From IMG/VR virus record IMGVR_UViG_3300024518_000034, positions 1 to 64,000 of that record: a stretch of 64,000 bases of DNA, one strand, 5' to 3'. A program made the translations under genes and the position numbers. Position 1 is the first letter of the stretch; every line of letters begins with the position of its first letter. Of this stretch, positions 1 through 48,099 are shown in pieces. Below the pieces are notes generated by a model. The model was given only the letters and a program-made list of their open reading frames with translations. It searched no databases and was not told the DNA's origin. This stretch comes from a virus.

Positions 1-11
1 GTATTTTTTAG

Positions 12-40
12 TAGCAAAAGACAAGAGTTGTTGGTACTCT
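12..40 (+). promoter_or_regulatory. Repeated early-region promoter copy P1 (TAGCAA-N17-TACTCT)
   Basis: TAGCAA 12-17, 17-nt spacer ending TTGG, TACTCT 35-40; same motif recurs 7 more times. Confidence 0.75.
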
Positions 41-51
41 AAATAGAACAA

Positions 52-156
52 GCAGCGACACGGTGTTCAGGCATCGCATTCTCATAGCCTAAATCGGGTT
101 CATTGATGTGGGGATTGAAGAGGACGACTACGCCTCTTGGTGGGAAGCCACGCTGC
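52..156 (+). ncRNA. tRNA-shaped structured RNA (cloverleaf topology, extended anticodon-like arm)
   Basis: Closing stem GCAGCG(52-57)/CGCTGC(151-156); hairpins CGGTG/CATCG, AAGAGG/CCTCTT, and TGG-N7-CCA abutting the 3' strand; directly after P1; no credible ORF. Confidence 0.5.
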
Positions 157-160
157 AATA

Positions 161-228
161 GGGGAGGTAGTTTAAACTACAAAATCTCGGTCACGAAGAT
201 GCAGGTGAAAACCCTGTCCTCTCCACCA
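161..228 (+). ncRNA. tRNA-like RNA with CCA end but truncated anticodon arm
   Basis: 7-bp acceptor GGGGAGG/CCTCTCC + A-CCA; D stem GTTT/AAAT; T arm GCAGG-TGAAAAC-CCTGT; anticodon arm only TCG-GTCA-CGA (10 nt instead of 17). Confidence 0.7.
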
Positions 229-230
229 CC

Positions 231-352
231 AAGATTACCGAGAGTATATAATCGGTCACTGCGTCTTGTAGCGCATCACAACGGAATCATTCTGCAAGCG
301 TTCGCATCGGGGCGCAGTCCAGCGGCTGGTACGATGCTAGTCCAGCAATCTT
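231..352 (+). ncRNA. Multi-hairpin structured RNA, tRNA-like topology
   Basis: AAGATT(231-236)/AATCTT(347-352) closure; ACCGA/TCGGT and TGCG/CGCA hairpins; GCTGG/CCAGC stem abutting the 3' strand. Confidence 0.45.
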
Positions 353-372
353 AAATAAGAAAGGCAAATGAA

Positions 373-528
373 ATGAAGATTCTGATCGGGTTGGTGCTGG
401 TGTTTACTCCCCTTAGCATAGTTGAATGTGAGGTTCTCTTTTGTCGGGAGCCTGCTAGGGTCATCGTTGAACATGGTGACCATACTCATGAATTGTGCTG
501 GAAGCACTTTCGAGAAAAAATAAGATAG
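373..528 (+). CDS. Small hypothetical protein (51 aa; hydrophobic N-terminus, Cys/His residues)
   Basis: Hand-translated MKILIGLVLVFTPLSIVECEVLFCREP...ELCWKHFREKIR; ends at the P2 promoter. Confidence 0.4.
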   Translation: MKILIGLVLVFTPLSIVECEVLFCREPARVIVEHGDHTHELCWKHFREKIR

Positions 529-531
529 TAG

Positions 532-560
532 TAGCAAGAACAATACTTCACTGGTATTCT
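532..560 (+). promoter_or_regulatory. Promoter copy P2 (TAGCAA-N17-TATTCT)
   Basis: TAGCAA 532-537, TATTCT 555-560, followed by AAGTGAAGTAAG. Confidence 0.75.
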
Positions 561-574
561 AAGTGAAGTAAGAT

Positions 575-734
575 GTCCTGGCTCGGTGCAGGATGTTGGA
601 TAGGCCATTGAAGAAGTCACGGGTCAAGCCCCTAAGCCGGGAGAGTCGTGAGCGTGAAACTATAACGTTAATGCTAGCCTAAGCGTTAGGAACCAATGCC
701 AACATTCAAAACGGTTCAATTCCGTTTGGGGACT
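575..734 (+). ncRNA. Reduced tmRNA-like RNA (tRNA-like domain + long P2 helix + short internal frame)
   Basis: Imperfect acceptor GTCCT/GGGGAC; canonical T arm AACGG-TTCAATT-CCGTT (710-726); helix GGATGTTGG(591-599)/CCAACATTC(699-707) extended by CATTG/CAATG; internal frame ETITLMLA-TAA (656-682) with stop in hairpin CCTAA-GCG-TTAGG. Confidence 0.45.
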
Positions 735-790
735 GCTGAGAAGTCAAGGTGCGAAAACTTACGAAGCTCGCATTCTTTCCAGGGGTTTTA

Positions 791-825
791 GGGATGTACC
801 ATCGGCGTCAAACATCCCGTTCTTT
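791..825 (+). terminator. Hairpin GGGATGT/ACATCCC followed by GTTCTTT; possible terminator or processing site
   Basis: 7-bp stem with short T-rich tail after the ncRNA block. Confidence 0.4.
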
Positions 826-845
826 AACAAGTAGGAGAGAGAAGA

Positions 846-1046
846 ATGTCTCATACGTACATCGTTGCTATCAGAGAGGTTCACATAAATCTTGTAGAAG
901 TAACGTCAGAGGGTCCATTGAGTGAGGAAGACGCTAAAGAGATAGCAGCGCAGCATAGCTGTTCGGATTCTCTCGATATCGAGTTTAGTCACACTATGGA
1001 TAACGATACTTGGACGGTAGAAGAAATAAACAAACAGGAGAAGTAA
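846..1046 (+). CDS. Hypothetical acidic protein (66 aa)
   Basis: ORF with upstream AGGAG Shine-Dalgarno. Confidence 0.65.
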   Translation: MSHTYIVAIREVHINLVEVTSEGPLSEEDAKEIAAQHSCSDSLDIEFSHTMDNDTWTVEEINKQEK

Positions 1047-1048
1047 TC

Positions 1049-1210
1049 ATGGCACGAGGTAAGAACCGTAATCAGCCGAAGATCAAGGTGAAGTGCAAGA
1101 AGTGTCAGGACGTGGGTGTTCGCTCTGTTCTCGTGATTCGCTCTGGTCCGAAAGCAACTCGTGGTGGTGCGTATCGCTCGGTGGTCAAGGTGGACTGCTG
1201 CAATGTTTAG
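1049..1210 (+). CDS. Small basic protein with CxxC...CC (possible Zn-binding)
   Basis: ATG 1049 after AGGAG; MARGKNRNQPKIKVKCKKCQD...VDCCNV. Confidence 0.6.
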   Translation: MARGKNRNQPKIKVKCKKCQDVGVRSVLVIRSGPKATRGGAYRSVVKVDCCNV

Positions 1211-1367
1211 TACAATTGAGGCAGATCGTGCAGCTTGTGCAGCAAACAAAACAAAAGCAGTCCGCGATGGAAAATTCGCTGAAGCGAGGGAGTGGAGTAA
1301 AGCGGAACAACATTTGAGAGAGGCAAGCGCTGCAATTCGCAGGATCAAGTGGCTAATGAAAAAGTAG
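1203..1367 (+). CDS. Hypothetical protein (54 aa)
   Basis: ATG overlaps the end of the previous gene; stop abuts promoter P3. Confidence 0.5.
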   Translation: MFSTIEADRAACAANKTKAVRDGKFAEAREWSKAEQHLREASAAIRRIKWLMKK

Positions 1368-1396
1368 TAGCAAGATCAGTAGTTTGTTGGTATTCT
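1368..1396 (+). promoter_or_regulatory. Promoter copy P3
   Basis: TAGCAA 1368-1373, N17, TATTCT 1391-1396. Confidence 0.8.
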
Positions 1397-1431
1397 AAGT
1401 GAAGTAAGGAAAACCACAAAAGGAGGGACAA

Positions 1432-1653
1432 ATGAAAGTGAAGATGAAAAACCCAAGTAGCTGCATGGCTCGGACATCTAAGATCAAGGCCATTGCAAAA
1501 CAATGCAAGGCGCTGGGATTTATAGTCAAGGCAGACTATAAAAGTGCTGGCACCGTCAAGATCAAGGATGGTGAGGAAGAGATGTACATGGCTATTCAAA
1601 AGGGTAAGAATGGCCCTTGGATCGTTCGCTACAGTCAAGATTATTTTGCATGA
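1432..1653 (+). CDS. Hypothetical basic protein (73 aa)
   Basis: ORF with GGAGG SD, downstream of P3. Confidence 0.7.
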   Translation: MKVKMKNPSSCMARTSKIKAIAKQCKALGFIVKADYKSAGTVKIKDGEEEMYMAIQKGKNGPWIVRYSQDYFA

Positions 1654-1663
1654 GGTAAGACCA

Positions 1664-1834
1664 ATGGAGACTGAGAGGATTTATATCTGGGGCGTTTACA
1701 AGGCGATAGGGCACCTTGTCACCGACAAGGTTGGGCAGTCTCCTACTGAGTTGGGCGCAAGACTGGTAGCTATCGAGTGTCGCAAGACTGGGTATCTTGG
1801 TAATCTCAAGAAGATTCGCCGCAGAATAAAATAA
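1664..1834 (+). CDS. Hypothetical protein (56 aa)
   Basis: GAGGT SD, ATG 1664; ends just before P4. Confidence 0.55.
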   Translation: METERIYIWGVYKAIGHLVTDKVGQSPTELGARLVAIECRKTGYLGNLKKIRRRIK

Positions 1835-1843
1835 ATAAAGTAG

Positions 1844-1872
1844 TAGCAAGAAGTAAGTTAGTTCGGTATTCT
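1844..1872 (+). promoter_or_regulatory. Promoter copy P4
   Basis: TAGCAA 1844-1849, N17, TATTCT 1867-1872, A-rich upstream. Confidence 0.8.
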
Positions 1873-1906
1873 AAGTGTAAGTAAGAGAAACCGAAAGGAG
1901 ATCAAG

Positions 1907-2134
1907 ATGCAAGTCGAGAAGATCAGAGCGGCATTTGAACAAGCGTTTGGTGAGGCTGAAGTAGTGAGAACTGTTCCGGTGATTAGCATTGCGACACCTA
2001 ATGATGAGTTTACTGTCGAGATCGTCAATGGCAGACTGATCTGGACCGATTTCAGTCACACAACTGACCTGGGGCCTGAAGACGGGTCAGAAATTATCAA
2101 GAAATTGGTAACAAAGTGGGTAACTGCCAGGTAA
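1907..2134 (+). CDS. Hypothetical protein (75 aa)
   Basis: AAGGAG SD; ORF track. Confidence 0.7.
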   Translation: MQVEKIRAAFEQAFGEAEVVRTVPVISIATPNDEFTVEIVNGRLIWTDFSHTTDLGPEDGSEIIKKLVTKWVTAR

Positions 2135-2171
2135 TAGAGCGATCTGGGAAAACTACTAGGAGAATAAAATA

Positions 2172-2435
2172 ATGCGTAAGGCAGACGTGGAAGTGGGTAA
2201 GGTGTACAGTGCCAAGGTGAGCGGCAAACTTGTGATTGTGAGGCTAGATCGTGAGTCACGATATGGCGGTTGGGAAGGCACAAATCTATACACTGGCCGA
2301 AGTGTAAGGCTTAGGACTGCTGGACGATTGCGCCTGGAAGTACCGGAGTCTGTTGTTCAGAGAATGATTGACAGAGATAAGGTTCACAGAAAAAATGTCA
2401 AAAAGTGGCAAGAAGAGGAGTGGTCGATTTCTTAG
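2172..2435 (+). CDS. Hypothetical basic protein, SH3-like beta motif (KxDVxVGKxYxAKVSG...GGWxGTNLxTGRxVR)
   Basis: AGGAG SD; ORF track. Confidence 0.7.
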   Translation: MRKADVEVGKVYSAKVSGKLVIVRLDRESRYGGWEGTNLYTGRSVRLRTAGRLRLEVPESVVQRMIDRDKVHRKNVKKWQEEEWSIS

Positions 2436-2452
2436 AAAAGGAGAAAAACCAA

Positions 2453-2734
2453 ATGGCATGGCAAGTGATTTTGAATGGCGCACCAATTATTGATTGTGAG
2501 TCTGAAACTGAAATGGCAGACAAATTGCTCGCACTGTTCAATTTGGGGGTTTTTGGAACATTCGACACCAGAGAAGTGAAGTGTAAAGATTGTGCTGACC
2601 ACCTGCTGGGTTGTCCTGTTTGCACTGACCAACCTGCGCCTGCCACCAAGCCGGTGCGCTGGATCGTCCCGTCGCTGGTCCGCAAGACCGGCGCTGGCAA
2701 GTGGGTCGCGGAGCAAGGGGCGCGGGACGACTGA
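2453..2734 (+). CDS. Hypothetical protein with CxxC...CxxC
   Basis: AAGGAG SD before ATG 2453; CKDC and CPVC motifs. Confidence 0.65.
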   Translation: MAWQVILNGAPIIDCESETEMADKLLALFNLGVFGTFDTREVKCKDCADHLLGCPVCTDQPAPATKPVRWIVPSLVRKTGAGKWVAEQGARDD

Positions 2735-2758
2735 CCAAAAAGAAAATAAATAAAGTAG

Positions 2759-2787
2759 TAGCAAGAGTAGCAGTACGTTGGCAATCT
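2759..2787 (+). promoter_or_regulatory. Promoter copy P5 (TAGCAA-N17-CAATCT)
   Basis: Same motif and spacing. Confidence 0.7.
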
Positions 2788-2814
2788 AAATGTAGTAAGA
2801 AACAGTAAGATAAA

Positions 2815-2936
2815 GGGAGCCAACAATACTCCAGCGCAAAATCAGGCCGCGCTACACAAGAAAAGAGCAAACCGAGTGCTGAGAATCTAGGGGCGGTACG
2901 CAAGGGAAACGGTGGGTCGTGCGTGCAAAAAGCTCC
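2815..2936 (+). ncRNA. Multi-hairpin structured RNA of unknown class
   Basis: GGAGC/GCTCC closure; AGCGC/GCGCT, AGCA/TGCT and GTACGCA/TGCGTGC stems; follows P5; no ORF with SD. Confidence 0.4.
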
Positions 2937-2957
2937 GTTAAATTAAAAATCACCATG

Positions 2958-3032
2958 GATTCCGTCGCAGACTGCTGAAGGGTGCTAGGCTTGATAAATC
3001 CTAGTACCAGGGTTCAATTCCCTGCGGAATCT
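2958..3032 (+). ncRNA. tRNA-like RNA with elongated anticodon stem and no variable loop
   Basis: Perfect acceptor GATTCCG/CGGAATC; T arm CAGGG-TTCAATT-CCCTG; stem GTGCTAGG/CCTAGTAC with 10-nt loop CTTGATAAAT; atypical D region. Confidence 0.7.
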
Positions 3033-3063
3033 AAGATAAGTAAACAAAAACAGGAGAAAGAAA

Positions 3064-3237
3064 ATGAAGAAAGGTAAGACCATGGAAAAGCTCTTAGGTG
3101 AAATTCTAACTGAGATAGATAATTTGTCTCTTTCGGAGGGTAGTGACGGTTGTGACTTTCCTTGGACCGTAGTGGATGTTCGCTCTGTGAACCGATTGAA
3201 AGAGCTTGCAAACGAAATCGCAAAAGAAACAAAATAA
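3064..3237 (+). CDS. Hypothetical protein (57 aa)
   Basis: Hand-translated MKKGKTMEKLLGEIL...; AGGAG SD; ends at P6. Confidence 0.6.
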   Translation: MKKGKTMEKLLGEILTEIDNLSLSEGSDGCDFPWTVVDVRSVNRLKELANEIAKETK

Positions 3238-3241
3238 GTAG

Positions 3242-3270
3242 TAGCAAAAATAAAGTCACGTTGGTACACT
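3242..3270 (+). promoter_or_regulatory. Promoter copy P6 (TAGCAA-N17-TACACT)
   Basis: Same motif and spacing. Confidence 0.7.
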
Positions 3271-3305
3271 GAGTGGTAATAAACAAAACAAATCAGGAGA
3301 GAGCT

Positions 3306-3548
3306 ATGTCAGTGAATAAAAAGAACTTCCAGCGTCGTCATTATGTTGCAGTAGCTGAAGCGATCAACACGCTCTGGAGTGAGGCACGCGATGGGGAAAT
3401 GATGGTAGCGACTAAGAACGAAGAGTCGTACCGTGATGCGTTGACTGATACCATCAGCGAATTGTCTAAAACTTTCTTCTATGACAATCCCAACTTCGAC
3501 CAGACTCGATTCACTGAGGCGTGTCGAAAAAGAAATAAAAAAGAGTAG
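3306..3548 (+). CDS. Conserved-looking phage early protein (RxHYxAVAxAI...DNPNFDxxRFxxAC)
   Basis: AGGAG SD; motif type common in phage early regions. Confidence 0.65.
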   Translation: MSVNKKNFQRRHYVAVAEAINTLWSEARDGEMMVATKNEESYRDALTDTISELSKTFFYDNPNFDQTRFTEACRKRNKKE

Positions 3549-3577
3549 TAGCAAACAAGTAGCGAGCTTGGTATTCT
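3549..3577 (+). promoter_or_regulatory. Promoter copy P7
   Basis: TAGCAA 3549-3554, N17, TATTCT 3572-3577. Confidence 0.75.
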
Positions 3578-3615
3578 GTTTAGAAGGATAACAACGGAAA
3601 ACAGGAGAAGCGGAA

Positions 3616-4602
3616 ATGGCACATAAGATTAAGCTGGTTAAGGACAAGATTGAAGTCCTGACCGATGGCTGGCCTGGTAAGCCAGCACTCGCTAAGATCA
3701 AGGCATTGCCCGGTCGCAAGTGGGACGCGGATCGCAAGATCTGGTGGCTCCCCGCTTCGCCGGATGGCGTTGCCGCTGCCGTAGCGCTCGCCGCTGAACT
3801 GTGTTATGTGGTTGGCGACGATCTGCTCAAGCAGGCTTCCGATCAAGCTCGAAAAGAAGATGGTGTGTTTGCGGTACAGGACGCATTCATTGATGACGAC
3901 GTGGCAGCATGGGCATTTCAGCGTCAAGGCAGTAAGGCACTGGCGCGTAACGACCGTTACATTCTGGGCGATGACATGGGTCTGGGAAAGACTCGTCAGT
4001 ATCAGATGGCTCTGCCGAAGGCTAAGAAATGTGGACTGCTGGTGATCTGCCCAGCTTCGATCAAGGGTGTTCACGAGAAAGAGCTTCGCAAGTGGCGTAA
4101 GGATTTTAAGAAAATCACGATTATCTCAGGACGTGGGAACTTCAGGTATCCCAAGACCGGTGAGTGTGTCATCATCAATTTCGACATTCTCCCCAAGGTG
4201 GTTGAACTGGAGACTATGGACGTTCCGGCTGATCTCATCGTGGTGGTTGATGAAGCGCATAACTGCAAGAATTACAAGGCGCTACGCACCAAGCGAGTTA
4301 CTAAGATTATCGAACGTGCCTGGCTTGCATGGCTGTTGACTGGTACAGCGCTACAGAATCGACCCGGAGAACTCTGGACTATCCTTCAGGTTGGCGGTCT
4401 GATTGAAAAGGCTGGGCTGACGTTCGGACGCTTTTGCGCTCTGTTCGGTGCTAAGAAGGGTCAGTATGGAATGGTTTGGGGTGCGCCTCGACCAGAGATT
4501 GCGGAAATCCTCAAGCGAGTGATGCTTCGACGTGAGAAGGGCGAAGTGCTACAGGATCTGCCGGAAAAGGTGTACAGCAGTGTGCCGGTGGAAATCTTTT
4601 AA
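3616..4602 (+). CDS. SNF2/SMARCAL1-type helicase, N-terminal half (HARP-like domain + RecA lobe 1)
   Basis: PGRKWDADRKIWWLP HARP-like segment; DDMGLGKT (I), VVDEAH (II), LLTGTALQN (III), MLRR..VLQDLPEK; lacks motifs IV-VI. Confidence 0.9.
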   Translation: MAHKIKLVKDKIEVLTDGWPGKPALAKIKALPGRKWDADRKIWWLPASPDGVAAAVALAAELCYVVGDDLLKQASDQARKEDGVFAVQDAFIDDDVAAWAFQRQGSKALARNDRYILGDDMGLGKTRQYQMALPKAKKCGLLVICPASIKGVHEKELRKWRKDFKKITIISGRGNFRYPKTGECVIINFDILPKVVELETMDVPADLIVVVDEAHNCKNYKALRTKRVTKIIERAWLAWLLTGTALQNRPGELWTILQVGGLIEKAGLTFGRFCALFGAKKGQYGMVWGAPRPEIAEILKRVMLRREKGEVLQDLPEKVYSSVPVEIF

Positions 4603-4610
4603 GAAAGTAG

Positions 4611-4639
4611 TAGCAGGATCAGTAGCATGTTGGTATTCT
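4611..4639 (+). promoter_or_regulatory. Promoter copy P8 (TAGCAG-N17-TATTCT), between the helicase halves
   Basis: Near-identical to P3 over ~50 bp; begins right after the helicase-N stop codon. Confidence 0.8.
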
Positions 4640-4689
4640 AAGTGTAGTAAGGAACAACGGAACGCAGGCAACGAAAAAAGGAGCGAGAC

Positions 4690-4953
4690 ATGGCACGACG
4701 CAAGACCACGAGCCCCGGCAAGATCCGCAGCACGACCCGCGAAGCGAACGAGTTGGCTGACATGCTGACGCGCCTTCTGGTTCCGGTTCTGGGCGAGGAC
4801 ATTGCCCGCAAGCTGGCGTTCAAGACGCTGATCAGCAAGAACCCGGCTCGTCGCCTGGACGGTGCCAAGGAGGTTCAGAAGTACCTGGGCCTCGCTGGCG
4901 CGAACAAGCTCCAGGCCCTGTGCGCCAAGACAAACTTCAAGAACGCCCGTTAA
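4690..4953 (+). CDS. Hypothetical basic protein (87 aa) inserted between helicase halves
   Basis: AAGGAG SD; high-GC codon usage. Confidence 0.75.
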   Translation: MARRKTTSPGKIRSTTREANELADMLTRLLVPVLGEDIARKLAFKTLISKNPARRLDGAKEVQKYLGLAGANKLQALCAKTNFKNAR

Positions 4954-4966
4954 GGAGATCAATCAA

Positions 4967-6073
4967 ATGACCAACGTCAAGACGCTACTCGACAGGGTGC
5001 AGCAAGATTGGGATGAGAACTACCCAGCCGACAAGCTGCCTCCCTTCGAGGAGCTTTCGGCTGCTCGCGCTGCTCTTGCGACTGCTAAGATCCCTGCCGC
5101 ACTGGAGTGGATCAAGCAGTATCAAGAGAACAGCGACAAGCCACTGATCGTGTTCAGCGCTCACCGTGCGCCGGTCGAAACGATCAGCGACCTTGAGGGG
5201 TTCGATTCGATTCTCGGGGGCACGCCTGTCGAGCGCAGGACACAGCTTGTCGAGGATTTCCAGGCTGGCAAACTCAAGGGTCTTGCCATCACGATCAAGG
5301 CCGGCGGTGAGGGTCTGACCTTGACCGCTGCGGATCACGCGCTATTTGTTGATCTGGAATGGAACCCGGCCAAGAATCGTCAGGCGGAAGATCGTATCCA
5401 CCGCATCGGCCAGCGTGATTCGGCTAGCATCGTAGTGCTTGAAGCAAACCATGAGATTGATCGCAGGCTCTGCGAGCTTCTCCAACACAAGCAGGATCTG
5501 TTCGACAAGGTGATCGGCGCAGCAAGCGTGGAAGAAAAGCTCACGCAGCAGGAAATCGTGGATAAGGTCAAGAATCAGGAAGTGCCGGAAGATGAGCCCA
5601 AGAAGAAAGAGCCGTTTATCAGGTATGCCAAACTGATTCAGCACATGGTTGACGCTAGGGCCAAGGGCTTGAAGTGGCCGAAAATCACGCTGCGTGCGAA
5701 CGGTCAGGTTGTCCAGCTTTCCCTCACGGGAGACAAGGCGAAACGACCAGGCACGATCAACCTCTCAAACGGTGAGAAGTTCGGCAGTCCCAAGAACAAG
5801 TACTACGGGGCGATTGGAAAAGACGGGAAATGGTTTCCAGCGAGAAACCTTGACGCCAAGACACGCTCCGCAGTCGTGGCTCTGCTCGACGCTTTCCAGC
5901 GTGACCCAAGCGAGATCGCTCTCAAACACTCGCACGATACTGGGTACTGTTGCTTCTGCGGCATCCTCATCGGCGCGACGGGAAAGAAGGAAAGTGTGCT
6001 TAGGGGATACGGTCCCAAGTGCGCCCAGAATTGGGGTCTGCCGTTCGACTTCGCCAAGTACGCAAAAGAGTAA
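4967..6073 (+). CDS. SNF2-type helicase, C-terminal half (RecA lobe 2) fused to a C-terminal DUF6011-like Zn domain
   Basis: AAGGAG SD, ATG 4967; LIVFSAHR (IV), GGEGLTLTAAD (V), WNPAKNRQAEDRIHRIGQ (VI); C-terminal CCFCG...ESVLRGYGPKCA. Confidence 0.9.
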   Translation: MTNVKTLLDRVQQDWDENYPADKLPPFEELSAARAALATAKIPAALEWIKQYQENSDKPLIVFSAHRAPVETISDLEGFDSILGGTPVERRTQLVEDFQAGKLKGLAITIKAGGEGLTLTAADHALFVDLEWNPAKNRQAEDRIHRIGQRDSASIVVLEANHEIDRRLCELLQHKQDLFDKVIGAASVEEKLTQQEIVDKVKNQEVPEDEPKKKEPFIRYAKLIQHMVDARAKGLKWPKITLRANGQVVQLSLTGDKAKRPGTINLSNGEKFGSPKNKYYGAIGKDGKWFPARNLDAKTRSAVVALLDAFQRDPSEIALKHSHDTGYCCFCGILIGATGKKESVLRGYGPKCAQNWGLPFDFAKYAKE

Positions 6074-6089
6074 AGATGTTCATTTCTCC

Positions 6090-6140
6090 ACCGTCTAACG
6101 ATTCAAGCGATTAAGGATCGTTAGACGGTTCTCCTTTTCT
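6090..6140 (+). terminator. Rho-independent terminator
   Basis: CCGTCTAACGAT/ATCGTTAGACGG perfect 12-bp stem followed by TTCTCCTTTTCT. Confidence 0.8.
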
Positions 6141-6163
6141 TGTGCAATTAAGGAATATTGGTC

Positions 6164-6343
6164 ATGAAAGCTACACTAGAGAATGTGGAAGTAAAGAGTG
6201 TCTTGGGTGTTTACAACTTGAAGGACAACAGCAACAAAAAGGAATATAGAAAGGTTCAAGTGTTTTTGGGATTTGATGATAAGAAGTATGTTTGGTTGAA
6301 TAAGAAATGGTACAGCATGGATTCGTTCGACGTTGTACTGTAG
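6164..6343 (+). CDS. Hypothetical protein (59 aa)
   Basis: ORF track; AAGGA upstream. Confidence 0.45.
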   Translation: MKATLENVEVKSVLGVYNLKDNSNKKEYRKVQVFLGFDDKKYVWLNKKWYSMDSFDVVL

Positions 6344-6632
6344 TGTTTGACGAGTAATACAAACGAATACACAAGTAAACAAACGAGGATTACAAGAGTT
6401 TGAGGATGGTAAGGATTGCAGGGCGTCTAAAAGGGCTGAATAAGGGCGCGTCCCCGCGCCGTCCAGCAATCCTTAACTTTACATAACGGCATAAACACAT
6501 AAAGCGTACAATACTCATATAAAAGAAAAATAAAGAAAGATAGGGGGGATTGCAGGTTTTTCGGTCATAGCTGGTAGGCAGTAAGTTACGAATTTGACAC
6601 TTTAGATAACATTTCAGTCGAGGGAAACAAAA

Positions 6633-6911
6633 ATGCAGAAGGTAGAAGTGGTCAACGCGCTACGGGCAATCTTGGAAGCTGCAAACCTGGCCGATGCAAC
6701 GGAACCGGTTAGAAACGATCTACCGGCTGGCGCGGCATTCGAGCGAGGCGGCTTGTACGGTCACATCAAGCAGGCGCTGATTTCGCTGGGCGAAGGAGAA
6801 GCGCAGGAACAGTGGACGATCACGGGTGAATGGCCCTCAGACGAGTTGAGTTGCATCAATTGCGACGGTCGCCCGTGTTGGGGCTGTCCGGTGGATCAGA
6901 TCGGTAGCTAA
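6633..6911 (+). CDS. Hypothetical protein with C-terminal CxxC-x3-CxxC
   Basis: GAGGG SD; CINCDGRPCWGC. Confidence 0.7.
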   Translation: MQKVEVVNALRAILEAANLADATEPVRNDLPAGAAFERGGLYGHIKQALISLGEGEAQEQWTITGEWPSDELSCINCDGRPCWGCPVDQIGS

Positions 6912-6930
6912 AGAAAAATAAAAGAATAAG

Positions 6931-6959
6931 TTGGCAATCGTTGGAAATCGTGATAAGCT
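6931..6959 (+). promoter_or_regulatory. Sigma70-type promoter upstream of the sigma gene (TTGGCA-N17-TAAGCT)
   Basis: A-rich UP element, 17-nt spacer. Confidence 0.45.
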
Positions 6960-7005
6960 TTATGTGTTCAGCAAGTAACTAACACTTTTCAAACGGAGCG
7001 CGAAA

Positions 7006-7572
7006 ATGACCAAAACGCAGCAGGCTTTCATCGTGCAGTACCTGGACCTGGCGATTCGCATCGCCTCGAAAATCCTGGGGGAGTGGATCGACCCGGATAG
7101 CGATAAGGGAGCCAGCGCGTATTTCGGGCTCGTTGAAGCGGCCCAAAAGTTCGACGCCGACAAGGGCACGCCGGAAAGCTGCGTTTGGCTTTACGTGAGA
7201 AAGCGTGTTCTGCGCGATCTGCAATCATTCACTCGCACCAGTAAGTCGAGAGCGTGCAACGCTTGCAAGGGCAAGATCAAGGTTGCAACGTGCGATGCTT
7301 GCGGTGGAACGGGTCGCCAGGTTGTAACGCTCGGGATCGCTGGACAGGTTGGGAAGTGGGATGCGAATAACGAGGACGCGGAACAGGTTGGCACGCTTCT
7401 TGACACGCTCGACTCACGAGCCCGCGACATCCTCACCCAGCGCTACCTCGGGAAGCGCACACAACAGCAGGTTGCCGACAAGCTCGGCATCAGTCGCCAG
7501 TACGTTACGAAGATCGAGAGGCAGGCTCTGGCATCGCTGAGAATCGCTGCTAAGGGGTCGCCAGTCCAATAA
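7006..7572 (+). CDS. Phage RNA polymerase sigma factor (sigma70 family regions 2 and 4) with Zn-finger insert
   Basis: AYFGLVEAAQKFDADKG (region 2); RDILTQRYL..TQQQVADKLGISRQYVTKIERQAL (region 4 HTH); CNACKG...CDACGGTG between them. Confidence 0.85.
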   Translation: MTKTQQAFIVQYLDLAIRIASKILGEWIDPDSDKGASAYFGLVEAAQKFDADKGTPESCVWLYVRKRVLRDLQSFTRTSKSRACNACKGKIKVATCDACGGTGRQVVTLGIAGQVGKWDANNEDAEQVGTLLDTLDSRARDILTQRYLGKRTQQQVADKLGISRQYVTKIERQALASLRIAAKGSPVQ

Positions 7573-7790
7573 GTATAGCGGCTGGTATGCTGGCGCGTTG
7601 GACACGTCCCAAACGCTCAGGCTGGCTCGCTCACATAGCGTGCCAGACCTGGGCTCTACGCTGATTTGTTTTTTATATATTTTTAGAGGGGGTTGGTTAG
7701 CAAACTTATGGGACTCCTACCGGTGCGCGGGGTGGGGGGTGGTTACTTCTGTATATATATACCAAAAATTTTGAACTCTTAATAAGCGAT

Positions 7791-28177: not shown

Positions 28178-28345
28178 GGAAGTGGGAATGGGAAGAACAG
28201 CAAATACTAAATGCGATGTATGTGAAACACCAATATGGGTGATATATCAACCAGGATATCTTTACATTCATAGTTGGTTAATAGGTGTCATCTGGCAGTT
28301 TATCACAGAGTATAAAAACGATAAACATTTAGTAGGTTAAAATTT

Positions 28346-28415
28346 ACACCACTCTGTGGATTCAGGGTTTACCCCTACGAAGGGTATAAGCTAGGTTCGA
28401 TTCCTAGGTGGTGTA
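28346..28415 (+). tRNA. tRNA-Arg(ACG), short atypical D arm
   Basis: ACACCAC/GTGGTGT; TACCC-CTACGAA-GGGTA; CTAGG-TTCGATT-CCTAG. Confidence 0.8.
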
Positions 28416-39649: not shown

Positions 39650-42600
39650 ATGGGTTTAGAAACTGCAATTAAAGCTGTCGGAGCAGCGGCGGAAGGAAGC
39701 GGCAAGGCTTTTGGTGGATTTGAAAAAGCTATAAGTGCAACTGCTAGTACTGCAAAGAGTCTAGATGGTGTTATGGCTAGCCTGATGAAGAGTTTTCTTG
39801 AGGTTGGACCAGTAGTTAAATATGAAAAATCTCTGTTGGAGATTCAAAGAACTACTGGAAAAACTGTTAAGGAGATTAAAAAACTAGAAACGGTTTTCAA
39901 GAGGGTCGCAAAAGGGTCTAGATATTCTAGGGACGCATTAGCTAAGTTAACTAGTGGAATGAGTAATCATATTTCTATGATTACCATGACTAACAAATCG
40001 ACTGAAAGATTCCTAAAAACGATGAGCAGTAAATTCGTCGTAGGAATGGAACAGGCGATAAAAGTTCTTGCCGCACTAGGAGATGAATATTCAGAATTTG
40101 GAGCCTCTTTAGCTAAGGGCGACGTGGAGTGGGATTCTGCAGTTTCACAACTTACATCTTTCAATGTATTAATGGAAAAAGGTCCGATGGCTGTAATTCA
40201 AATGAATAAAGCCATGACTGGGCACGCTAAAGGGCTTGGAGATTTAACTGATGCCCAACAGCGACAGGAAGCTGCACAAAAAGATGCAAAACTAGCCTTT
40301 GGTGAAAGTATGAAAGAAGTGTCAAAGGGTGTAATGCAAATGCAAACATTCCTTGCTTCGATTTTGCCAGTAACTAAAGCATTATCAGCTTTAGCGGCTG
40401 CGATGGGTGCAGTCAGCGCAGCAAAAGCAGGTATGAGGTTTGCTGCGGGTGGTGGTTTTGGAGGACGAGGAGGAAAAGGTGGCGCTGGAGGCGGCGCAGC
40501 AGCGGGAGGATATGGCAGTCCAACAATGGCGGGCAGGATATGGGGCATGAGGACTAAAGAAGGCAGAAAAGGAATGTGGCGCAAGGACAAGCCGTCCGTT
40601 GGCCAACATGCGGCAGCTATTAGGGAGAACAGAAGTAGAGATTTTAAGAAAAGAATGTATATGGGTCATATGCCAGGGCAAGTTATTCCTGGTACAGGGG
40701 GAATGATGGGGCCTGGCAAGACTGATCCTAAATATTTTAAATTTAAAGGGAAGTCGCCAATACCACAAAGGGCAGGGTTCGCTCGAAAAGCAATTGGTAC
40801 AGTGGGTGGGGGAAAAGTAGGAATGGGATTGAAAAAAGCCATGGGCGGGTTGACTTCGGCAATACTTCCTATGGCAGGAATGCTGCTTAAATTATTAGGA
40901 CCATTGGCACTCATAGGAACCTTAGTTGGTGTTATAATGCTATTGAATAAGAGGTTTAAGTCAGTTAGTGGATTTTTTACAAGAATAAAAAGAGTTGTTG
41001 AAAAAGTAGTTAGGGCACTTGACACGGCTTTTATGAAGATAGCTGAACCTTTAATGGAAGCAATGGAACCGTTGATAGAGTTGATGGGAAGCTTTGCAGA
41101 AGTTTTTGGAGATGCCACAATAAGTTTAATTAAAACAATGGCAGACCTTTTGGTGCCAGTCATAAAGGACTTTTTGATTCCAGTATTAAATAACCTTATA
41201 GATGCAGCTTACGCAGTTGCAAATAAGGCAGTAGATGCTTCAAATGTAGCAACTCCTTGGCAGAAGCCAGCAGGACATTTTAAGAGAGATGATGGAAGTT
41301 ATAGGGGTAAAAGAACGAAAAAAGAAAAAGGACTTGATAGGGAAGCATTTGCAGAAAATCAGAAGAAAAAGGGGCTCACTAGAAAAGATTTTGCCAAAAG
41401 ACAGAAGGAATATTTTAAAGCGGGAGACGATGAAGAAAAACAAGCAGCTAGAGTGGGAGATAAGAAAGCACTTGCTGCCATTAAGGCAAGAAAAGCAACT
41501 AAGGCTGCTGCAGAGGCAGCTAAACAAGCCGCCCAAGCAGCACTGCGGGCAGAAATGCAAAGAATACATAATCTGTTTCAAATACTTGATATAGAAATGA
41601 AAATAGCAGATCTAAAACAAAGTGCTTTGCAGTTAGAGTTGTCTTTAGCAGAAAAGACTGGTGCCACTTGGAGAATTATAGGGGAGCTTAAAAGAAAAGA
41701 TATTGATGAACAAATTGCTAAGTTAGAAGTTCAGAGAAAAAGAGTAGCGGAGGTGGAAGCTCAAAGAGCAAAGGGTATTAAGAAGGCTGCAGAAGAGAAA
41801 GCTGAAATCGTCATGAGAAGAAAAATGCTTGGAAAAAATTCTTGGTTTGTAAATGAAGAAGAGGATGAGGCAACTTTAAAGGGCCATAAGACAGCCGCAA
41901 AAAGAGCGGACAAAAATGTAAGGGAGGAGCGAATAAAAGAACAACAAATGGCAATAGATTTAAAGAAGAAAATGTTAGATCTAATCGATACAGAATATAA
42001 CATTAAGAAGAAGTTGATAGGTTTGGATCAACAAAACTTAGCTAACTTGGAAAGAATAGCGATGGCAACTAGAAAGGGAGATCCGGCTTTTGTAATAAAA
42101 ATCAAAAAGGAATCTATAAAACTTGATATGCAAGACTTGCACAATGTACAAGTTAAAATAAAGAAGACGGAATTGGCAAGAAAGAAGGCTATAGAGGCAG
42201 CAAGAATTGTGGGCGGTCGTGCAGGTGCAGAAAAAGAATCAGCAAAGTGGGTCGGCATAAGGAAGAAATTGCAAACAGAGGAAACTGGAATATTGGCAAC
42301 GATTTCGGAAAAGGCAGACTACATTCGTAGAACATGGCTTGAACAATATGCAGAAATGGCAATAGGAGCGCAGAGTGGAACATATCTTGTACCAGGAGCG
42401 TCCGACTTGTCTGGAATGCAAACTAAAGGCGCAGCGTTCAGACCGTGGGCACCAACTCAATCAGGCGGTGGAGCAGGAACATACAAAGACATCTATGGAA
42501 AACAATTAGATCCAGCATTAGAAACGGGTAGAAGTAAATTGGAGAGTCAATTGAAGAGGCACCAGGCCGACGCAAATAATGCGGTTAAGAGATTGTCTGA

Positions 42601-42667
42601 CGTTCAAATTAAAATGTTTAAGGAAGTAGAAGATAGAATTCGCAAGGCGATGACGGGTAGAAAATAA
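39650..42667 (+). CDS. Tail tape measure protein (1005 aa)
   Basis: Ala/Lys-rich helical protein, Gly-rich and hydrophobic central segments, coiled-coil C-terminal half; position. Confidence 0.85.
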   Translation: MGLETAIKAVGAAAEGSGKAFGGFEKAISATASTAKSLDGVMASLMKSFLEVGPVVKYEKSLLEIQRTTGKTVKEIKKLETVFKRVAKGSRYSRDALAKLTSGMSNHISMITMTNKSTERFLKTMSSKFVVGMEQAIKVLAALGDEYSEFGASLAKGDVEWDSAVSQLTSFNVLMEKGPMAVIQMNKAMTGHAKGLGDLTDAQQRQEAAQKDAKLAFGESMKEVSKGVMQMQTFLASILPVTKALSALAAAMGAVSAAKAGMRFAAGGGFGGRGGKGGAGGGAAAGGYGSPTMAGRIWGMRTKEGRKGMWRKDKPSVGQHAAAIRENRSRDFKKRMYMGHMPGQVIPGTGGMMGPGKTDPKYFKFKGKSPIPQRAGFARKAIGTVGGGKVGMGLKKAMGGLTSAILPMAGMLLKLLGPLALIGTLVGVIMLLNKRFKSVSGFFTRIKRVVEKVVRALDTAFMKIAEPLMEAMEPLIELMGSFAEVFGDATISLIKTMADLLVPVIKDFLIPVLNNLIDAAYAVANKAVDASNVATPWQKPAGHFKRDDGSYRGKRTKKEKGLDREAFAENQKKKGLTRKDFAKRQKEYFKAGDDEEKQAARVGDKKALAAIKARKATKAAAEAAKQAAQAALRAEMQRIHNLFQILDIEMKIADLKQSALQLELSLAEKTGATWRIIGELKRKDIDEQIAKLEVQRKRVAEVEAQRAKGIKKAAEEKAEIVMRRKMLGKNSWFVNEEEDEATLKGHKTAAKRADKNVREERIKEQQMAIDLKKKMLDLIDTEYNIKKKLIGLDQQNLANLERIAMATRKGDPAFVIKIKKESIKLDMQDLHNVQVKIKKTELARKKAIEAARIVGGRAGAEKESAKWVGIRKKLQTEETGILATISEKADYIRRTWLEQYAEMAIGAQSGTYLVPGASDLSGMQTKGAAFRPWAPTQSGGGAGTYKDIYGKQLDPALETGRSKLESQLKRHQADANNAVKRLSDVQIKMFKEVEDRIRKAMTGRK

Positions 42668-45600
42668 TGGGGAACACAGCAGCAGCGGGGTCAGTAGAGA
42701 CAGTAAATGCAAATGTAAGTGGTAGGTCAGTAGAACCGCCAACAAAAACGCCACCAACCGAAGGTCCACCCACAGAAGAGACAACTAGATTTTTGTGCGG
42801 TGATCAAAGAGGACAAATTAAATGGAGCGTAAGCTCTTCACAGAGAAGTCAGGTATTTTTAGATAATACTGTAGAACACAGCATTATTTATACCGATATG
42901 GTCAGTGAGACAATTCCTGAGTTTACGTTGACAGATAGCGATAAAGAATCGGTTGCAAAAATTAAGGCACTTACAGCGTCACCAGAAACTCCAGTGGCAA
43001 TATTCAGATATAACAGAACACACACATCTGGAGCTTTTGACAGTGATTTTTCTATTCCAATCTTCATAAGAAAGAAATCTAAAATAACTGGAAAAGTAGA
43101 ATATGAACCATTAACAGATGTATATTCCCCAGAAATATCTTATAATAAGTTCGATGATGAACTAATACTTTCATTCTGGCAAAATATAGACCCATCGGCA
43201 GGCGTTACAATATCTTCTATAGAGGGATATGGAAATGACGAGACTAAGGATTGCAGTAATAAGGTCGCCTCTACGGGAAGCGTATCAACGGTAGAAAATA
43301 AGAGCGGATCAGTATCATCAGTTTATAAGAATAAAAATAAAGACATACAAAGAGCATTGATGCATACACAGGGTAGTCCTGTAGCTGTAGCTTTTATAGA
43401 TGGAAAAGGTTTGCCTTATGATATAGTGTACATTTTTAATGAGCCTGCCGAGGTGATGAGAAAAAAAGGACCGATTAATGATATTAATCTAAACGTTGCC
43501 GTAACGTTAATTGCTGACAATGAAGATTGTGTGAATAGGCCAGATAGATCTTCTGTTAATAATTCTACATGGGTGTACGATGGTGACCATTGCAAGTACG
43601 GAGATCTAGATGATCTCTTTAAAGTTGACACTTGGTGTGGTAGTAAGTCTACAAGAGGATCTATTGAAATAACTAATGGGACGCAAGGAAGACAGAAAAG
43701 ACAGTTTGTATTAAGAAGTACAGCGTCTAATTTGGAATCTGAAGGTGAATATTGGGTTGAGACTAAATACGTAGATGACCCTTCGACTCCAGGTAGAAAA
43801 ATCCAAGTCAGTGTTAGAGTTTCGGCAGCAGAAGTCGCAGCAGCAAAAGCATTAGAGGCAGAAAATTCAAACTTAATAAGAGGTGGAAAAAAGTTTGACA
43901 AAATTAACAATGAAGGTGGGGCAGATAGTTCAGACAGTAGATTATTCATATGGATAAATGAAAATAAAAATTATTCTCCACAGGAAACTATAAAAGGTGG
44001 GTTGGTCTTCAGGAGAAGTAAGGACGTAACACAAAAAATTGTTGGGCACAATATAACATCAGACTTAAAAGGATTCAATAGGTTTGTAAAGGGATACCAA
44101 AATGGTACGCAGAATATCGGCGCAGTCATTATGGGCGACACTGGTTTTGAAAATACGGGAACTACAAATGGAAGCGTTACGCCAACGGGTACTCCAAAAC
44201 CATCATTAGATGAAATAAAATGTGGAATGTTTAGAGATGTTTTACATATTGCAGACGATGATCATTTGGAAGTCAGAACTAGTTCTCACTTCATATATCA
44301 AGATAGACAGCAAGGTCTTCCGGCTGAAAATTTGTCTGGCCCAGTAGTATTTTTTCCAGTAGAGAGATTTAATTTATGTAATGAATTCAGCGGAGCATTA
44401 ACTGGCGTATCTACTGTAGGCGGAAGTACAACGGGGACGTTCACTAAAAAATGTGAACCATATTCTGGATTCTTTTTCTTTAAGAAGTTTCCATTCGATG
44501 ATAAAGATCCTACAAAGTCTAACAAGTGTAAAAACAATATGGTGACAAATGTAGATGGGACAAGAGAATGGGAAGTTCCAGGCGTTTGGCATATAACTAC
44601 AGATGTCCCAGTATTTAATTGGACATTTGAACCGCCTCCTCCGCACAGAGGGGTTACCAGAGTTGGGTCGTTCAGTGGTGGAGGGTCTGCTGGGTCAAGT
44701 GGCTCGTCGGGCTCAAGTGCAGGCGGATCAGGTGGTTCCGGTGGCGGGCCAGCAGGGGGAGCAGGAGGAGCCGGTGGCGCTGCTGCTTCTTTTATAGTTC
44801 CACATAAGTTTGGCCAAGTTAATGCATCAATTGTAGAAAGTTATAATTCAAGACATATTGGTACGGGTGATAATCCGACAGCAATTGACGCATATGAGCC
44901 ATCACCCAATTTAGACTTAAGTGACGACACAAATATTCAATATGGGGGAGATGTTGCGGGACTAAGTGTGGGCATGGTTATTGCTATCTCTAGGAGGTTA
45001 AATGATCCAAACACTTCACCGAAAGCAAAAGCAAAATTGCTTGCTCTGCTAAACGATGCAAAAGAAAAAAGACCGAAAAAACCAGCAAAAATTAAAAAAA
45101 GCCCAAATGGAAAAGGGGTGGGAACAGATAAAAAATTAAATCCGAGTCAGATTGCTAACAAGGTTGCTCTACATAAGATGATATATGATGTTACACCGGG
45201 TGCAGCTATAGCGATGGCAAATGCAGCAAACACTATAAGAGATATACAGTATAAGTTTCCAAAAGGAAAGTTGCCAGATCAAGAAATTACTGATTATAAT
45301 TCAGACGGCGAAATTACAGGAGTAAGAGTTAATTCTGAATTTGGATTTAACCAAGATGGCGAAATAGTTGAAATTAAATCAGGAAAAATAAACGTAGAAG
45401 ATAAAGATTTTGATAAGACTTTAGAGGAAGTGCAGGAAAATGCAAAAAGTACTTACTTGGAGAAACTTGTACAATTTCCTACGGGCAGAAAACATGGTCC
45501 TGGGGCTTTTGAGGGTCAACCAGAATATGAGGGTGTTAACGTATATGTAGATAAAGATGGAAATTATTTAGATAAAAAGACATTGAAACCAGTAAATAAA

Positions 45601-48087: not shown

Positions 48088-48099
48088 GAAAGAATAAAA

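Follow-up and report, generated by a model that had tools for sequence, protein, structure and literature searches.

The stretch of DNA analysed here (the window) comprises bases 1-64000 of the 192,308-bp IMG/VR record of an uncultured phage (IMGVR_UViG_3300024518_000034). Near its start lie five short RNAs, named RNA1 to RNA5, which an initial annotation had described as an array of transfer RNA (tRNA)-shaped RNAs with altered anticodon arms. That description was upheld for RNA2, RNA4 and RNA5, which keep the acceptor and T-arm geometry ascribed to three of the RNAs and lack a 5-bp/7-nt anticodon arm. It was not upheld for RNA1 and RNA3, which have neither a T loop nor an Rfam match and are not tRNA-like.

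Relatives of the phage were recovered by exact-protein look-ups and formed two contig groups: lineage A, essentially identical to the window and present in at least four other samples, and lineage B, with about 80% DNA identity to the window and more than 20 contigs. The features of the early region are listed below in order of position (ORF, open reading frame; z, folding energy relative to shuffled sequences).

8..50, + strand: P1, promoter-like motif (TAGCAA and TACTCT at a spacing of 17 nt, the latter preceded by TGG)
52..156, + strand: RNA1, possible structured leader, not tRNA-like; lineage A only; fold z = -1.97
161..228, + strand: RNA2, tRNA-like; Rfam tRNA 34.2 bits (match 161-225)
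231..352, + strand: RNA3, conserved multi-branched leader, not tRNA-like, upstream of the 51-aa ORF
373..528, + strand: ORF of 51 aa, hydrophobic at its N terminus; first of the genes in the P1 cassette
528..572, + strand: P2, consensus copy of the motif (12/12 and 14/14 consensus matches); 97.9% identity in lineage B
575..735, + strand: RNA4, tRNA-like; T arm, acceptor stem, replaced anticodon arm
737-787 and 791-818, + strand: pair of conserved hairpins immediately 3' of RNA4 and ahead of the ribosome-binding site of ORF 846-1046
2755..2800, + strand: P5, promoter-like motif copy; 74% identity in lineage B
2831..2957, + strand: pre5, conserved non-coding block ending exactly at the first base of RNA5
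2958..3032, + strand: RNA5, tRNA-like; Rfam tRNA 29.7 bits; fold z = -4.39

Architecture and conservation of the tRNA-like RNAs

RNA2 was aligned by the Rfam tRNA model (RF00005) over an acceptor stem, D arm, 3-bp anticodon-stem remnant, variable region and T arm (GCAGG-UGAAAAC-CCUGU). Its anticodon arm is replaced by a bulged 6-bp stem with a tetraloop, and its 7-bp acceptor stem (G1-C72, G2-C71, G3.U70, G4-C69) is followed by A73, CCA and then a second CCA. RNA5 has a perfect 7-bp acceptor stem, a discriminator U and no D stem; instead of an anticodon stem it carries an 8-9-bp helix that runs straight into the T arm (CAGGG-UUCAAUU-CCCUG). The T arm of RNA4 (AACGG-UUCAAUU-CCGUU) adjoins the strand that pairs with the 5' end of the RNA, in an acceptor stem of 5 bp, a G.G mismatch and then G-U with a discriminator U; here a 9+5-bp helix replaces the anticodon stem and bears a three-hairpin insert. 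RNA2 and RNA5 both exceeded the Rfam tRNA gathering score (29 bits), RNA1, RNA3 and RNA4 gave no Rfam match, and ARAGORN with default parameters accepted none of the five, as the annotation had expected.

Four-fold degenerate sites in seven genes shared by lineages A and B were used as the neutral yardstick. Differences were found at 108 of 290 such sites (37%), which sets a neutral expectation of about 63% identity. RNA3, the ends of RNA4, the block at 735-820, pre5, RNA5 and two further elements outside the window (X1 and X2, see below) were 83-94% identical (P from 2e-4 to 3e-13). RNA3, RNA4, RNA5, pre5, X1 and X2 are under purifying selection.

Paired positions were retained as well. All 18 substituted stem positions in RNA4 and RNA5 stay paired, with six double changes, and slid controls for the two RNAs gave 0 double changes; the compensatory changes that the annotation had proposed to seek among homologues are therefore present in both, in one pairwise comparison of A with B. 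In RNA4 (43 pairs), four pairs showed double compensatory changes (C3-G70, which is U-A in lineage B; two T-stem pairs; one pair of a distal hairpin), four showed one-sided changes that preserve pairing, and none was broken by substitution. The corresponding figures for RNA5 (20 pairs) were two double changes (A2-U71 replaced by G-C, and a long-helix G-C by A-U), two one-sided and none broken. For both RNAs, separate folding of the A and B sequences gave the same architecture.

Divergence was located at the distal end of the molecules. RNA4 was 87% identical between lineages in its 5' part and 83% in its 3' part, and the GG of its D-loop analogue was kept while neighbouring bases changed; the interior of its first distal hairpin was rewritten and a second hairpin was 73 nt longer in lineage B. 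RNA5 was 84% identical, with a distal loop of 10 nt in lineage A against 5 nt in B. Since distal loops vary, and since a deletion within RNA2 (described below) spares the acceptor stem and T arm, selection acts on the acceptor/T-arm half and leaves the anticodon-equivalent end to vary freely. A 76-aa gene called over RNA4 in lineage B had no counterpart frame in lineage A and was rejected.

Sequences flanking the tRNA-like RNAs were also conserved. The annotation had placed the end of RNA4 at 734; functionally the element does not stop there, since the block that follows (735-820) is 91.8% identical between lineages (P = 1e-9), and this block has no conserved reading frame. Its first hairpin begins two bases past the RNA4 discriminator, and in the second (791-818) one A-U pair was lost on both strands in lineage B. 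The heptamer YUACGAA in hairpin 737-787 recalls the anticodon loop of tRNA-Arg; with 20 occurrences in the genome it was dismissed as not significant. The pre5 block (127 nt) was 91.3% identical (P = 3e-13), with 1-nt indels in lineage B and a fold of unremarkable stability (z = +1.3). An antisense 34-aa ORF across pre5 shows no protein-level selection, because five of its seven differing codons are non-synonymous; pre5 is a candidate for a small RNA released by cleavage at RNA5.

RNA1, RNA2 and RNA3 stand in tandem, as annotated, with spacers of 4 nt and 2 nt. RNA1 and RNA3 both fold into multi-branched structures with a closing terminal stem. RNA3 (fold z = -1.80) was 86.7% identical between lineages (P = 5e-9), is non-coding as judged from two 1-nt indels between them, and has two compensatory pairs in its consensus fold. 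A candidate promoter inside RNA3 (TATAAT in hairpin 1) was rejected, having no acceptable -35 element and no conservation as a promoter. RNA1 has no homologue in lineage B, where the upstream gene runs closer and a remnant of the 5' half of P1 abuts RNA3; the single within-lineage polymorphism in RNA1 (G to A at 108) changes a predicted U-G pair to U-A. Downstream of RNA3, the 51-aa ORF retained 38 of 48 residues in lineage B and showed changes at 8 of 13 four-fold sites. It belongs to no Pfam or PHROG family and is absent from the gene calls and the protein collection; its product contains a CxxxxxC...HxH...C pattern.

Alanine identity and two alleles of RNA2

The bacterial alanine acceptor determinants are A73, G2-C71, G3.U70 and G4-C69 (tRNA identity review, PMC9976931), and alanyl-tRNA synthetase (AlaRS) charges alanine minihelices (Francklyn and Schimmel 1989, as cited in PMC9976931). 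By sequence, the complete set is present in RNA2 only; RNA4 and RNA5 have no G3.U70. The same acceptor pattern (G1-C72, G2-C71, G3.U70, G4-C69 and ACCA) is shared with the phage's own transfer-messenger RNA (tmRNA) and with a tRNA-Ala(UGC)-like gene at 169,201.

Two forms of RNA2 were found. In four other assemblies and at the end of the contig, RNA2 carries a 27-nt deletion (bases 175-201), and the full-length form occurs at the window start alone. The deletion takes half of the D loop and the whole anticodon-arm substitute and leaves the acceptor stem of 7 bp joined to the T arm by a linker of 7 nt. On its sequence the deleted allele is essentially an alanine minihelix. It resembles the laboratory construct charged by AlaRS in being an acceptor/T-arm helix with G3.U70, A73 and CCA, and differs from it in being natural and in having the 7-nt linker bulge and a UGAAAAC loop. 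Given the identity set, RNA2 is predicted to be charged with alanine by AlaRS in both its full-length and its deleted forms.

The last 297 bases of the record (genome 192012-192308) repeat window 1-324, save for one single-nucleotide polymorphism and the 27-nt deletion; this imperfect overlap implies that the two RNA2 alleles coexist in the source sample. An independent 192,074-bp Joint Genome Institute (JGI) contig holds the same region mid-contig. The end repeat and this contig indicate a genome that is circularly permuted or terminally redundant, so the RNA elements sit in the middle of an early-gene block and not at a physical end. The record, classed as linear, is probably a complete circular or terminally redundant genome.

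Putative promoter cassettes, further members and genome setting

The repeat ahead of the RNAs is a motif of about 45 nt (GTAGTAGCAAGA-N12-TGGTATTCTAAGTG), present in about 17 full copies, all on the + strand, at 185.2-192.3 kb, 1-4.6 kb and once at 166,769. Its 12-mer core gave 17 matches against 5.7 expected. The layout is TAGCAA, 17 nt and an extended -10 element (TGG-TATTCT), and copies precede ORFs; P1 has a twin copy at genome position 190668. From the extended -10 element, the TAGCAA at 17 nt and the position ahead of ORFs, it is a reasonable inference that the motif is an early promoter from which transcription starts. The repeat claimed in the annotation was thus confirmed, and its promoter function keeps the standing of an inference. 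Several of the roughly 17 early promoter cassettes open with non-coding RNA modules instead of a gene. The statement that every RNA lies directly behind a promoter copy does not apply to RNA5, from which 157 nt, including pre5, separate it. The broader proposal of tRNA mimics behind early-type promoters holds for RNA2, RNA4, RNA5 and elements elsewhere in the genome, and not for RNA1 or RNA3.

Those further elements were found by a genome scan for T arms beside acceptor-type pairing.

188009-188092: X1, tRNA-like; 94% identity in lineage B
188101-188181: X2, tRNA-like; 86% identity in lineage B
166824-166979: RNA-G, tRNA-like; follows the promoter copy at 166,769 and immediately precedes groES-Ro60

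X1 and X2 form a tandem pair, preceded by a promoter-like sequence that is conserved but diverged and followed by the next ORF. A compensatory change in the T stem of X1 turns A-U into G-C. In X2, 10 of 12 loop bases were replaced on an invariant stem with flanks about 95% identical. RNA-G has the acceptor stem GCGAGGG/CCCUCGC, and its T arm (GCAGGUGAAAGCCCUGU) matches that of RNA2 (GCAGGUGAAAACCCUGU) at 16 of 17 bases; the two are paralogues. RNA2, RNA5, X1, X2 and RNA-G all share an acceptor stem of 7 bp stacked on a T stem of 5 bp, with a T loop of 7 nt (U54...A58), and so does RNA4 with one G.G mismatch. The T loop is canonical (UUCRANU) in RNA4, RNA5, X1 and X2 and reads UGAAARC in RNA2 and RNA-G. 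All elements have the coding-strand orientation and are flanked by a promoter-type repeat on one side and their cassette's first ORF on the other.

RNA-G belongs to an RNA-rich island near 166-169 kb that shares the early promoter type and comprises, in genome order, the tmRNA (166241-166624; 86.7 bits on Rfam), a D-armless tRNA-like RNA, the promoter copy with RNA-G and, at about 167.0-168.9 kb, groES and an adjoining TROVE/vWA Ro60 gene (about 167.3-168.9 kb). Another sample yielded a further copy of the Ro60 locus, 100% identical and therefore adding no covariation. The phage genome was found to hold neither smpB nor a gene for a CCA-adding enzyme. ARAGORN called 20 tRNAs genome-wide, about half of which encode CCA; because the others do not and no CCA-adding gene was found, the phage depends on host tRNA processing and CCA addition. 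The genuine tRNAs do lie far from the array, the only canonical ones called by default in the window being at 27.4 kb. A tRNA-Arg(ACG) at 28344-28414, with normal anticodon and T arms and an odd D region, was found by relaxed ARAGORN alone and missed by default ARAGORN and by the Rfam gathering run.

Canonical tRNAs occupy similar positions in relatives. The early block of lineage B includes a canonical tRNA-Glu(UUC) with encoded CCA (L010:2057-2131), a place where lineage A has none, its tRNA-Glu lying at 112.6 kb, and a distant relative linked through the SNF2 protein has four canonical tRNAs, each single, between small same-strand early-type genes. On these grounds, the mimics likely descend from tRNA genes scattered in the early region.

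Lineages A and B were the only two found in the collections searched. A blastn search of INPHARED with window 1-3300 gave no match, and the closest cultured phage by DnaB helicase was less than 30% identical. No third lineage was found in pattern scans of IMG/VR and JGI metagenomes or in searches of 5.8 billion proteins. When the RNA2 T arm, the promoter and the pre5 core were scanned as exact patterns against IMG/VR, none gave a match; the T-arm/acceptor pattern of RNA5 matched only a canonical tRNA-Met of an unrelated phage, and the promoter pattern, scanned in a single JGI metagenome, matched only lineage B contigs and chance single sites. Protein searches (upstream 116-aa protein, 53-aa protein and N-half of SNF2) returned lineages A and B and nothing else above about 49% identity, the adjacent SNF2 protein falling to 38-45% beyond lineage B. 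The contigs of distant homologues showed no equivalent RNA gaps. Pfam and PHROG searches of ten neighbouring small proteins assigned no family.

Several features of the surrounding genome were recorded. G+C content is 49% in the early block (window 1-7600), 44% in the 185-192 kb block and 39% in the genome bulk. The SNF2 helicase is encoded in two parts, the N-half at 3616-4602 and the C-half up to 6073, separated by a promoter copy at 4607 and an 87-aa ORF; lineage B shares the split, and in every homologue more distant than that SNF2 is one protein of 450-570 aa. The gene for the 116-aa protein precedes the RNA array, and in a distant relative (L066:129-2001) its homologue directly follows a CCA-adding enzyme gene (PolyA_pol and HD). 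One distant relative (L073:15952-16287, a 145-kb Logan contig) has two neighbouring tRNAs with CUA anticodons of the amber-suppressor type, labelled 'Pyl' by ARAGORN, which may reflect stop-codon reassignment or suppression in that phage. Three very large ORFs (1005, 1806 and 1063 aa) occupy window 39650-51291; the 1005-aa and 1063-aa products were scanned and matched no Pfam family.

Processing signals, decoys and other readings

The reading that we tentatively prefer, and to which we give a little less than an even chance, is that the tRNA-derived modules punctuate early transcripts and yield stable, capped small RNAs by being read by host tRNA enzymes. The retained acceptor/T-arm half would be the part read by these enzymes. 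RNase P would cut at the 5' side of each module; trimming of the 3' side would fall to RNase Z or exonucleases, and capping to the CCA-adding enzyme. Serving both as punctuation and as stable scaffolds, the modules would split an early transcript into an upstream small RNA (RNA1, pre5), a nuclease-resistant tRNA-like RNA with a variable distal arm, and a downstream mRNA, which after RNA4 would start with a conserved hairpin. This is suggested by the 7/5 stack, which all members keep and which RNase P, RNase Z and the CCA-adding enzyme measure, and by the placement of the modules between promoter and ORF, with conserved neighbours that start or stop at their borders, and by the reliance of the phage's own tRNAs on host processing and CCA addition. 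The structural prerequisite for RNase P and RNase Z substrates, a 12-bp acceptor/T-arm stack, is present; cleavage by both enzymes and stability of the modules are predicted. Interaction with readers of the acceptor/T-arm half (RNase P, RNase Z, CCA-adding enzyme, AlaRS or EF-Tu) is plausible and, for RNA2, is a specific prediction of its alanine identity set.

A number of observations weigh against this reading. Folding was clearly more stable than in shuffled controls for RNA5 alone; the values were modest for RNA1 and RNA3, weak for RNA2 (z = -2.1) and RNA4 (z = -1.3), and gave no support for X1 (z = -0.1). RNA2 has the non-canonical T loop UGAAAAC, and RNA1 and RNA2 are absent from lineage B and therefore dispensable. 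The acceptor stem of RNA4 contains a conserved G.G mismatch, and RNAalifold on 270 nt pairs its 5' strand with 806-812 and its 3' strand with 785-790, under which the compensatory change in the acceptor becomes two one-sided changes; because of this preference the acceptor evidence for RNA4 is weaker than that for its T arm. With only two lineages, the covariation is a single pairwise comparison, to which statistics of the R-scape type cannot be applied. A generic sigma-70 scan made no call at the motif sites. Removal of a 5' leader could equally destabilise the mRNA, and the present evidence fits processing or scaffold roles and decoy or protein-binding roles alike.

A bolder version, which we regard as unlikely, treats the tRNA top half as a chassis for early small RNAs that would be excised and capped by host tRNA enzymes and carry a freely evolving distal 'payload'; RNA2 would then be a natural, non-decoding, alanine-charged minihelix, for example a sponge for toxins acting on tRNA 3' ends, a competitor in trans-translation or an alanine donor.

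Equally unlikely, in our estimate, is that the RNAs are decoys or sponges, made early and abundantly to soak up a host factor that reads the acceptor/T-arm half or the CCA end; candidate targets are toxins that modify or cut tRNA 3' ends, AlaRS, EF-Tu, RNase P and the enzyme that adds CCA. The early-type cassettes, the several different mimics in one genome, and the CCA end and full alanine identity set of RNA2 would suit such a role, and phage tRNAs are an established counter-defence against tRNA-cutting systems (PMC10264068, PMC11464382, PMC11555353). The documented systems, however, including bacterial Schlafen (PMC13056530), cut the anticodon loop, which is missing here and whose replacement is unconserved. 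With no anticodon loop and a variable distal loop, the RNAs would be poorly suited to decoy anticodon nucleases or A-site sensors of uncharged tRNA, and the titration of such nucleases that was first proposed is unlikely. Furthermore, CCA is encoded by RNA2 alone, the shapes differ so that no single target is copied, and the phage's own tRNAs need host RNase P, CCA addition and aminoacyl-tRNA synthetases. A partnership with the phage Ro60 protein (Rsr), either as Y-RNA-like molecules with a stabilising tRNA-like module and other parts that bind Ro60, or as substrates of Ro60 quality control, appears less probable still. It draws on the Ro60 gene adjoining groES, on an operon preceded by the same promoter type and by RNA-G with its RNA2-like T arm, and on the YrlA Y RNAs of bacteria and phages, which are tRNA mimics that can be cleaved by RNase P and accept CCA (PMC4201824). 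YrlA genes, though, share a strand with rsr and lie no more than 4 kb from it, a distance that for the window RNAs is about 25-30 kb; a regex scan found the GNCGAAN0-1G motif in none of these RNAs, Rfam returned no YrlA or Y RNA match at E up to 10, and their topology is unpermuted and ends in an acceptor stem instead of a Ro-binding stem.

Much the same low probability is assigned to cis-acting 5' leaders that stay on the mRNA and control translation or decay, or sense a ligand or tRNA-binding factor, with tRNA likeness as a relic. All elements do stand between a promoter-type repeat and the first ORF, the hairpins at 737-818 and RNA3 reach up to ribosome-binding sites, and RNAalifold proposes long-range alternative pairing around RNA4. 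A generic leader would nevertheless have no need of the T-loop sequence and 7/5 stack that are kept, the downstream ORFs differ between lineages (the genes after RNA5 are different, and ORF 846-1046 is absent from B), and no ribosome-binding site is sequestered in the consensus folds. Decay into functionless tRNA pseudogenes, left from once-scattered early tRNA genes, would account for the loss of RNA1 and RNA2 from lineage B, the RNA2 deletion polymorphism, the canonical tRNAs in similar slots of relatives and the rejection of all elements by default ARAGORN; it is very improbable in view of conservation far beyond the 37% neutral divergence (RNA3, RNA4, RNA5, X1 and X2), substitutions in stems that all preserve pairing, and divergence confined to distal loops. 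The least probable proposal, that RNA4 is a miniature tmRNA with a short tag frame (ETITLMLA-stop), follows the tmRNA layout (acceptor strand, then D-loop analogue, long helix, internal structures and finally T arm), in a phage that encodes a real tmRNA. It was rejected: RNA4 has no alanine identity (C3-G70 in A or U3-A70 in B, discriminator U), a 73-nt insertion in lineage B interrupts the proposed frame and creates an in-frame stop, the three 'tag' substitutions are non-synonymous or stop-to-stop and are explained by hairpin compensation, positions 40-760 gave no tmRNA match in Rfam at E up to 10, and smpB is lacking.

Comparison with known systems and significance

Non-decoding tRNA mimics are already known: tmRNA, YrlA RNAs including those of phages, the stable RNAs of T4, mascRNA and the TMERs. 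Among eukaryotic and herpesviral systems, driven by RNA polymerase II or III, the mascRNA of MALAT1 and the tRNA-miRNA units (TMERs) of murid herpesvirus 68, the latter in an array at the left genome end, are non-decoding tRNA-shaped elements that recruit RNase P and/or RNase Z and define the ends of neighbouring RNAs. The likeness lies in a tRNA-shaped element within a larger transcript, processing in the phage being predicted from sequence. On Rfam, RNA5 matched mascRNA-menRNA (RF01684) weakly, with 22.4 bits (E = 0.25) against a gathering score of 42.5 bits. RNA4 and RNA5 resemble tmRNA in having an acceptor stem, a D-loop analogue without a D stem and a long helix into the T arm; they differ from it (RF00023) in their lack of alanine identity, and the window RNAs in general in having no conserved tag frame or Rfam match and sizes of 68-161 nt.

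In T4, species 1 and 2 are stable non-tRNA RNAs processed with tRNAs inside the tRNA cluster, and in T4-type phages 'promoter-early stem-loop' (PeSL) cassettes consist of repeated early promoters that bracket small, shuffled ORFs in a plastic region. The promoter cassette system of about 17 copies resembles the PeSL arrangement. The window RNAs differ in standing in mRNA leaders, the T4 RNAs are not top-half mimics, and PeSLs carry plain stem-loops; no sequence relationship to the T4 RNAs was found in the INPHARED search.

YrlA-type Y RNAs of bacteria and mycobacteriophages are non-decoding and have a tRNA-like T arm, a D region and an acceptor-like stem (Chen et al. 2014, PMC4201824); at least one YrlA is cut by RNase P and given CCA, and Ro60-carrying genomes, including those of phages, encode YrlA (PMC4201824). 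Here too, non-decoding tRNA mimics occur in a genome encoding Ro60. YrlA, in contrast, is circularly permuted and ends in a Ro-binding stem, and the window RNAs are set apart by the motif, Rfam and distance differences given above; outside the window, RNA-G does share with YrlA a same-strand position no more than about 4 kb from rsr. The phage tRNAs used in counter-defence (PMC10264068, PMC11464382, PMC11555353) likewise form a phage-encoded tRNA family with altered anticodon regions, but they are complete, decode and replace cleaved host tRNAs, whereas the RNAs described here cannot decode. Full-text searches of the literature found no account of such early-promoter leader modules in phage, nor of a natural alanine-minihelix allele.

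Whether phage tRNA genes serve codon supply or counter-defence is debated. tRNA-derived RNAs that are kept under selection after all decoding has been lost isolate the other uses of the molecule, as processing signal, stability scaffold and protein handle. With a tmRNA, Ro60 with Y-RNA-like neighbours and about 20 tRNAs, this phage is a rich natural system for the viral use of host tRNA machinery. If the scaffold reading is true, the modules would be a natural precedent for the engineered 'tRNA scaffold' of recombinant RNA expression; if the chassis reading is true, they would correspond, in a bacterial virus, to the herpesvirus tRNA-miRNA units and include the first natural non-decoding alanine minihelix.

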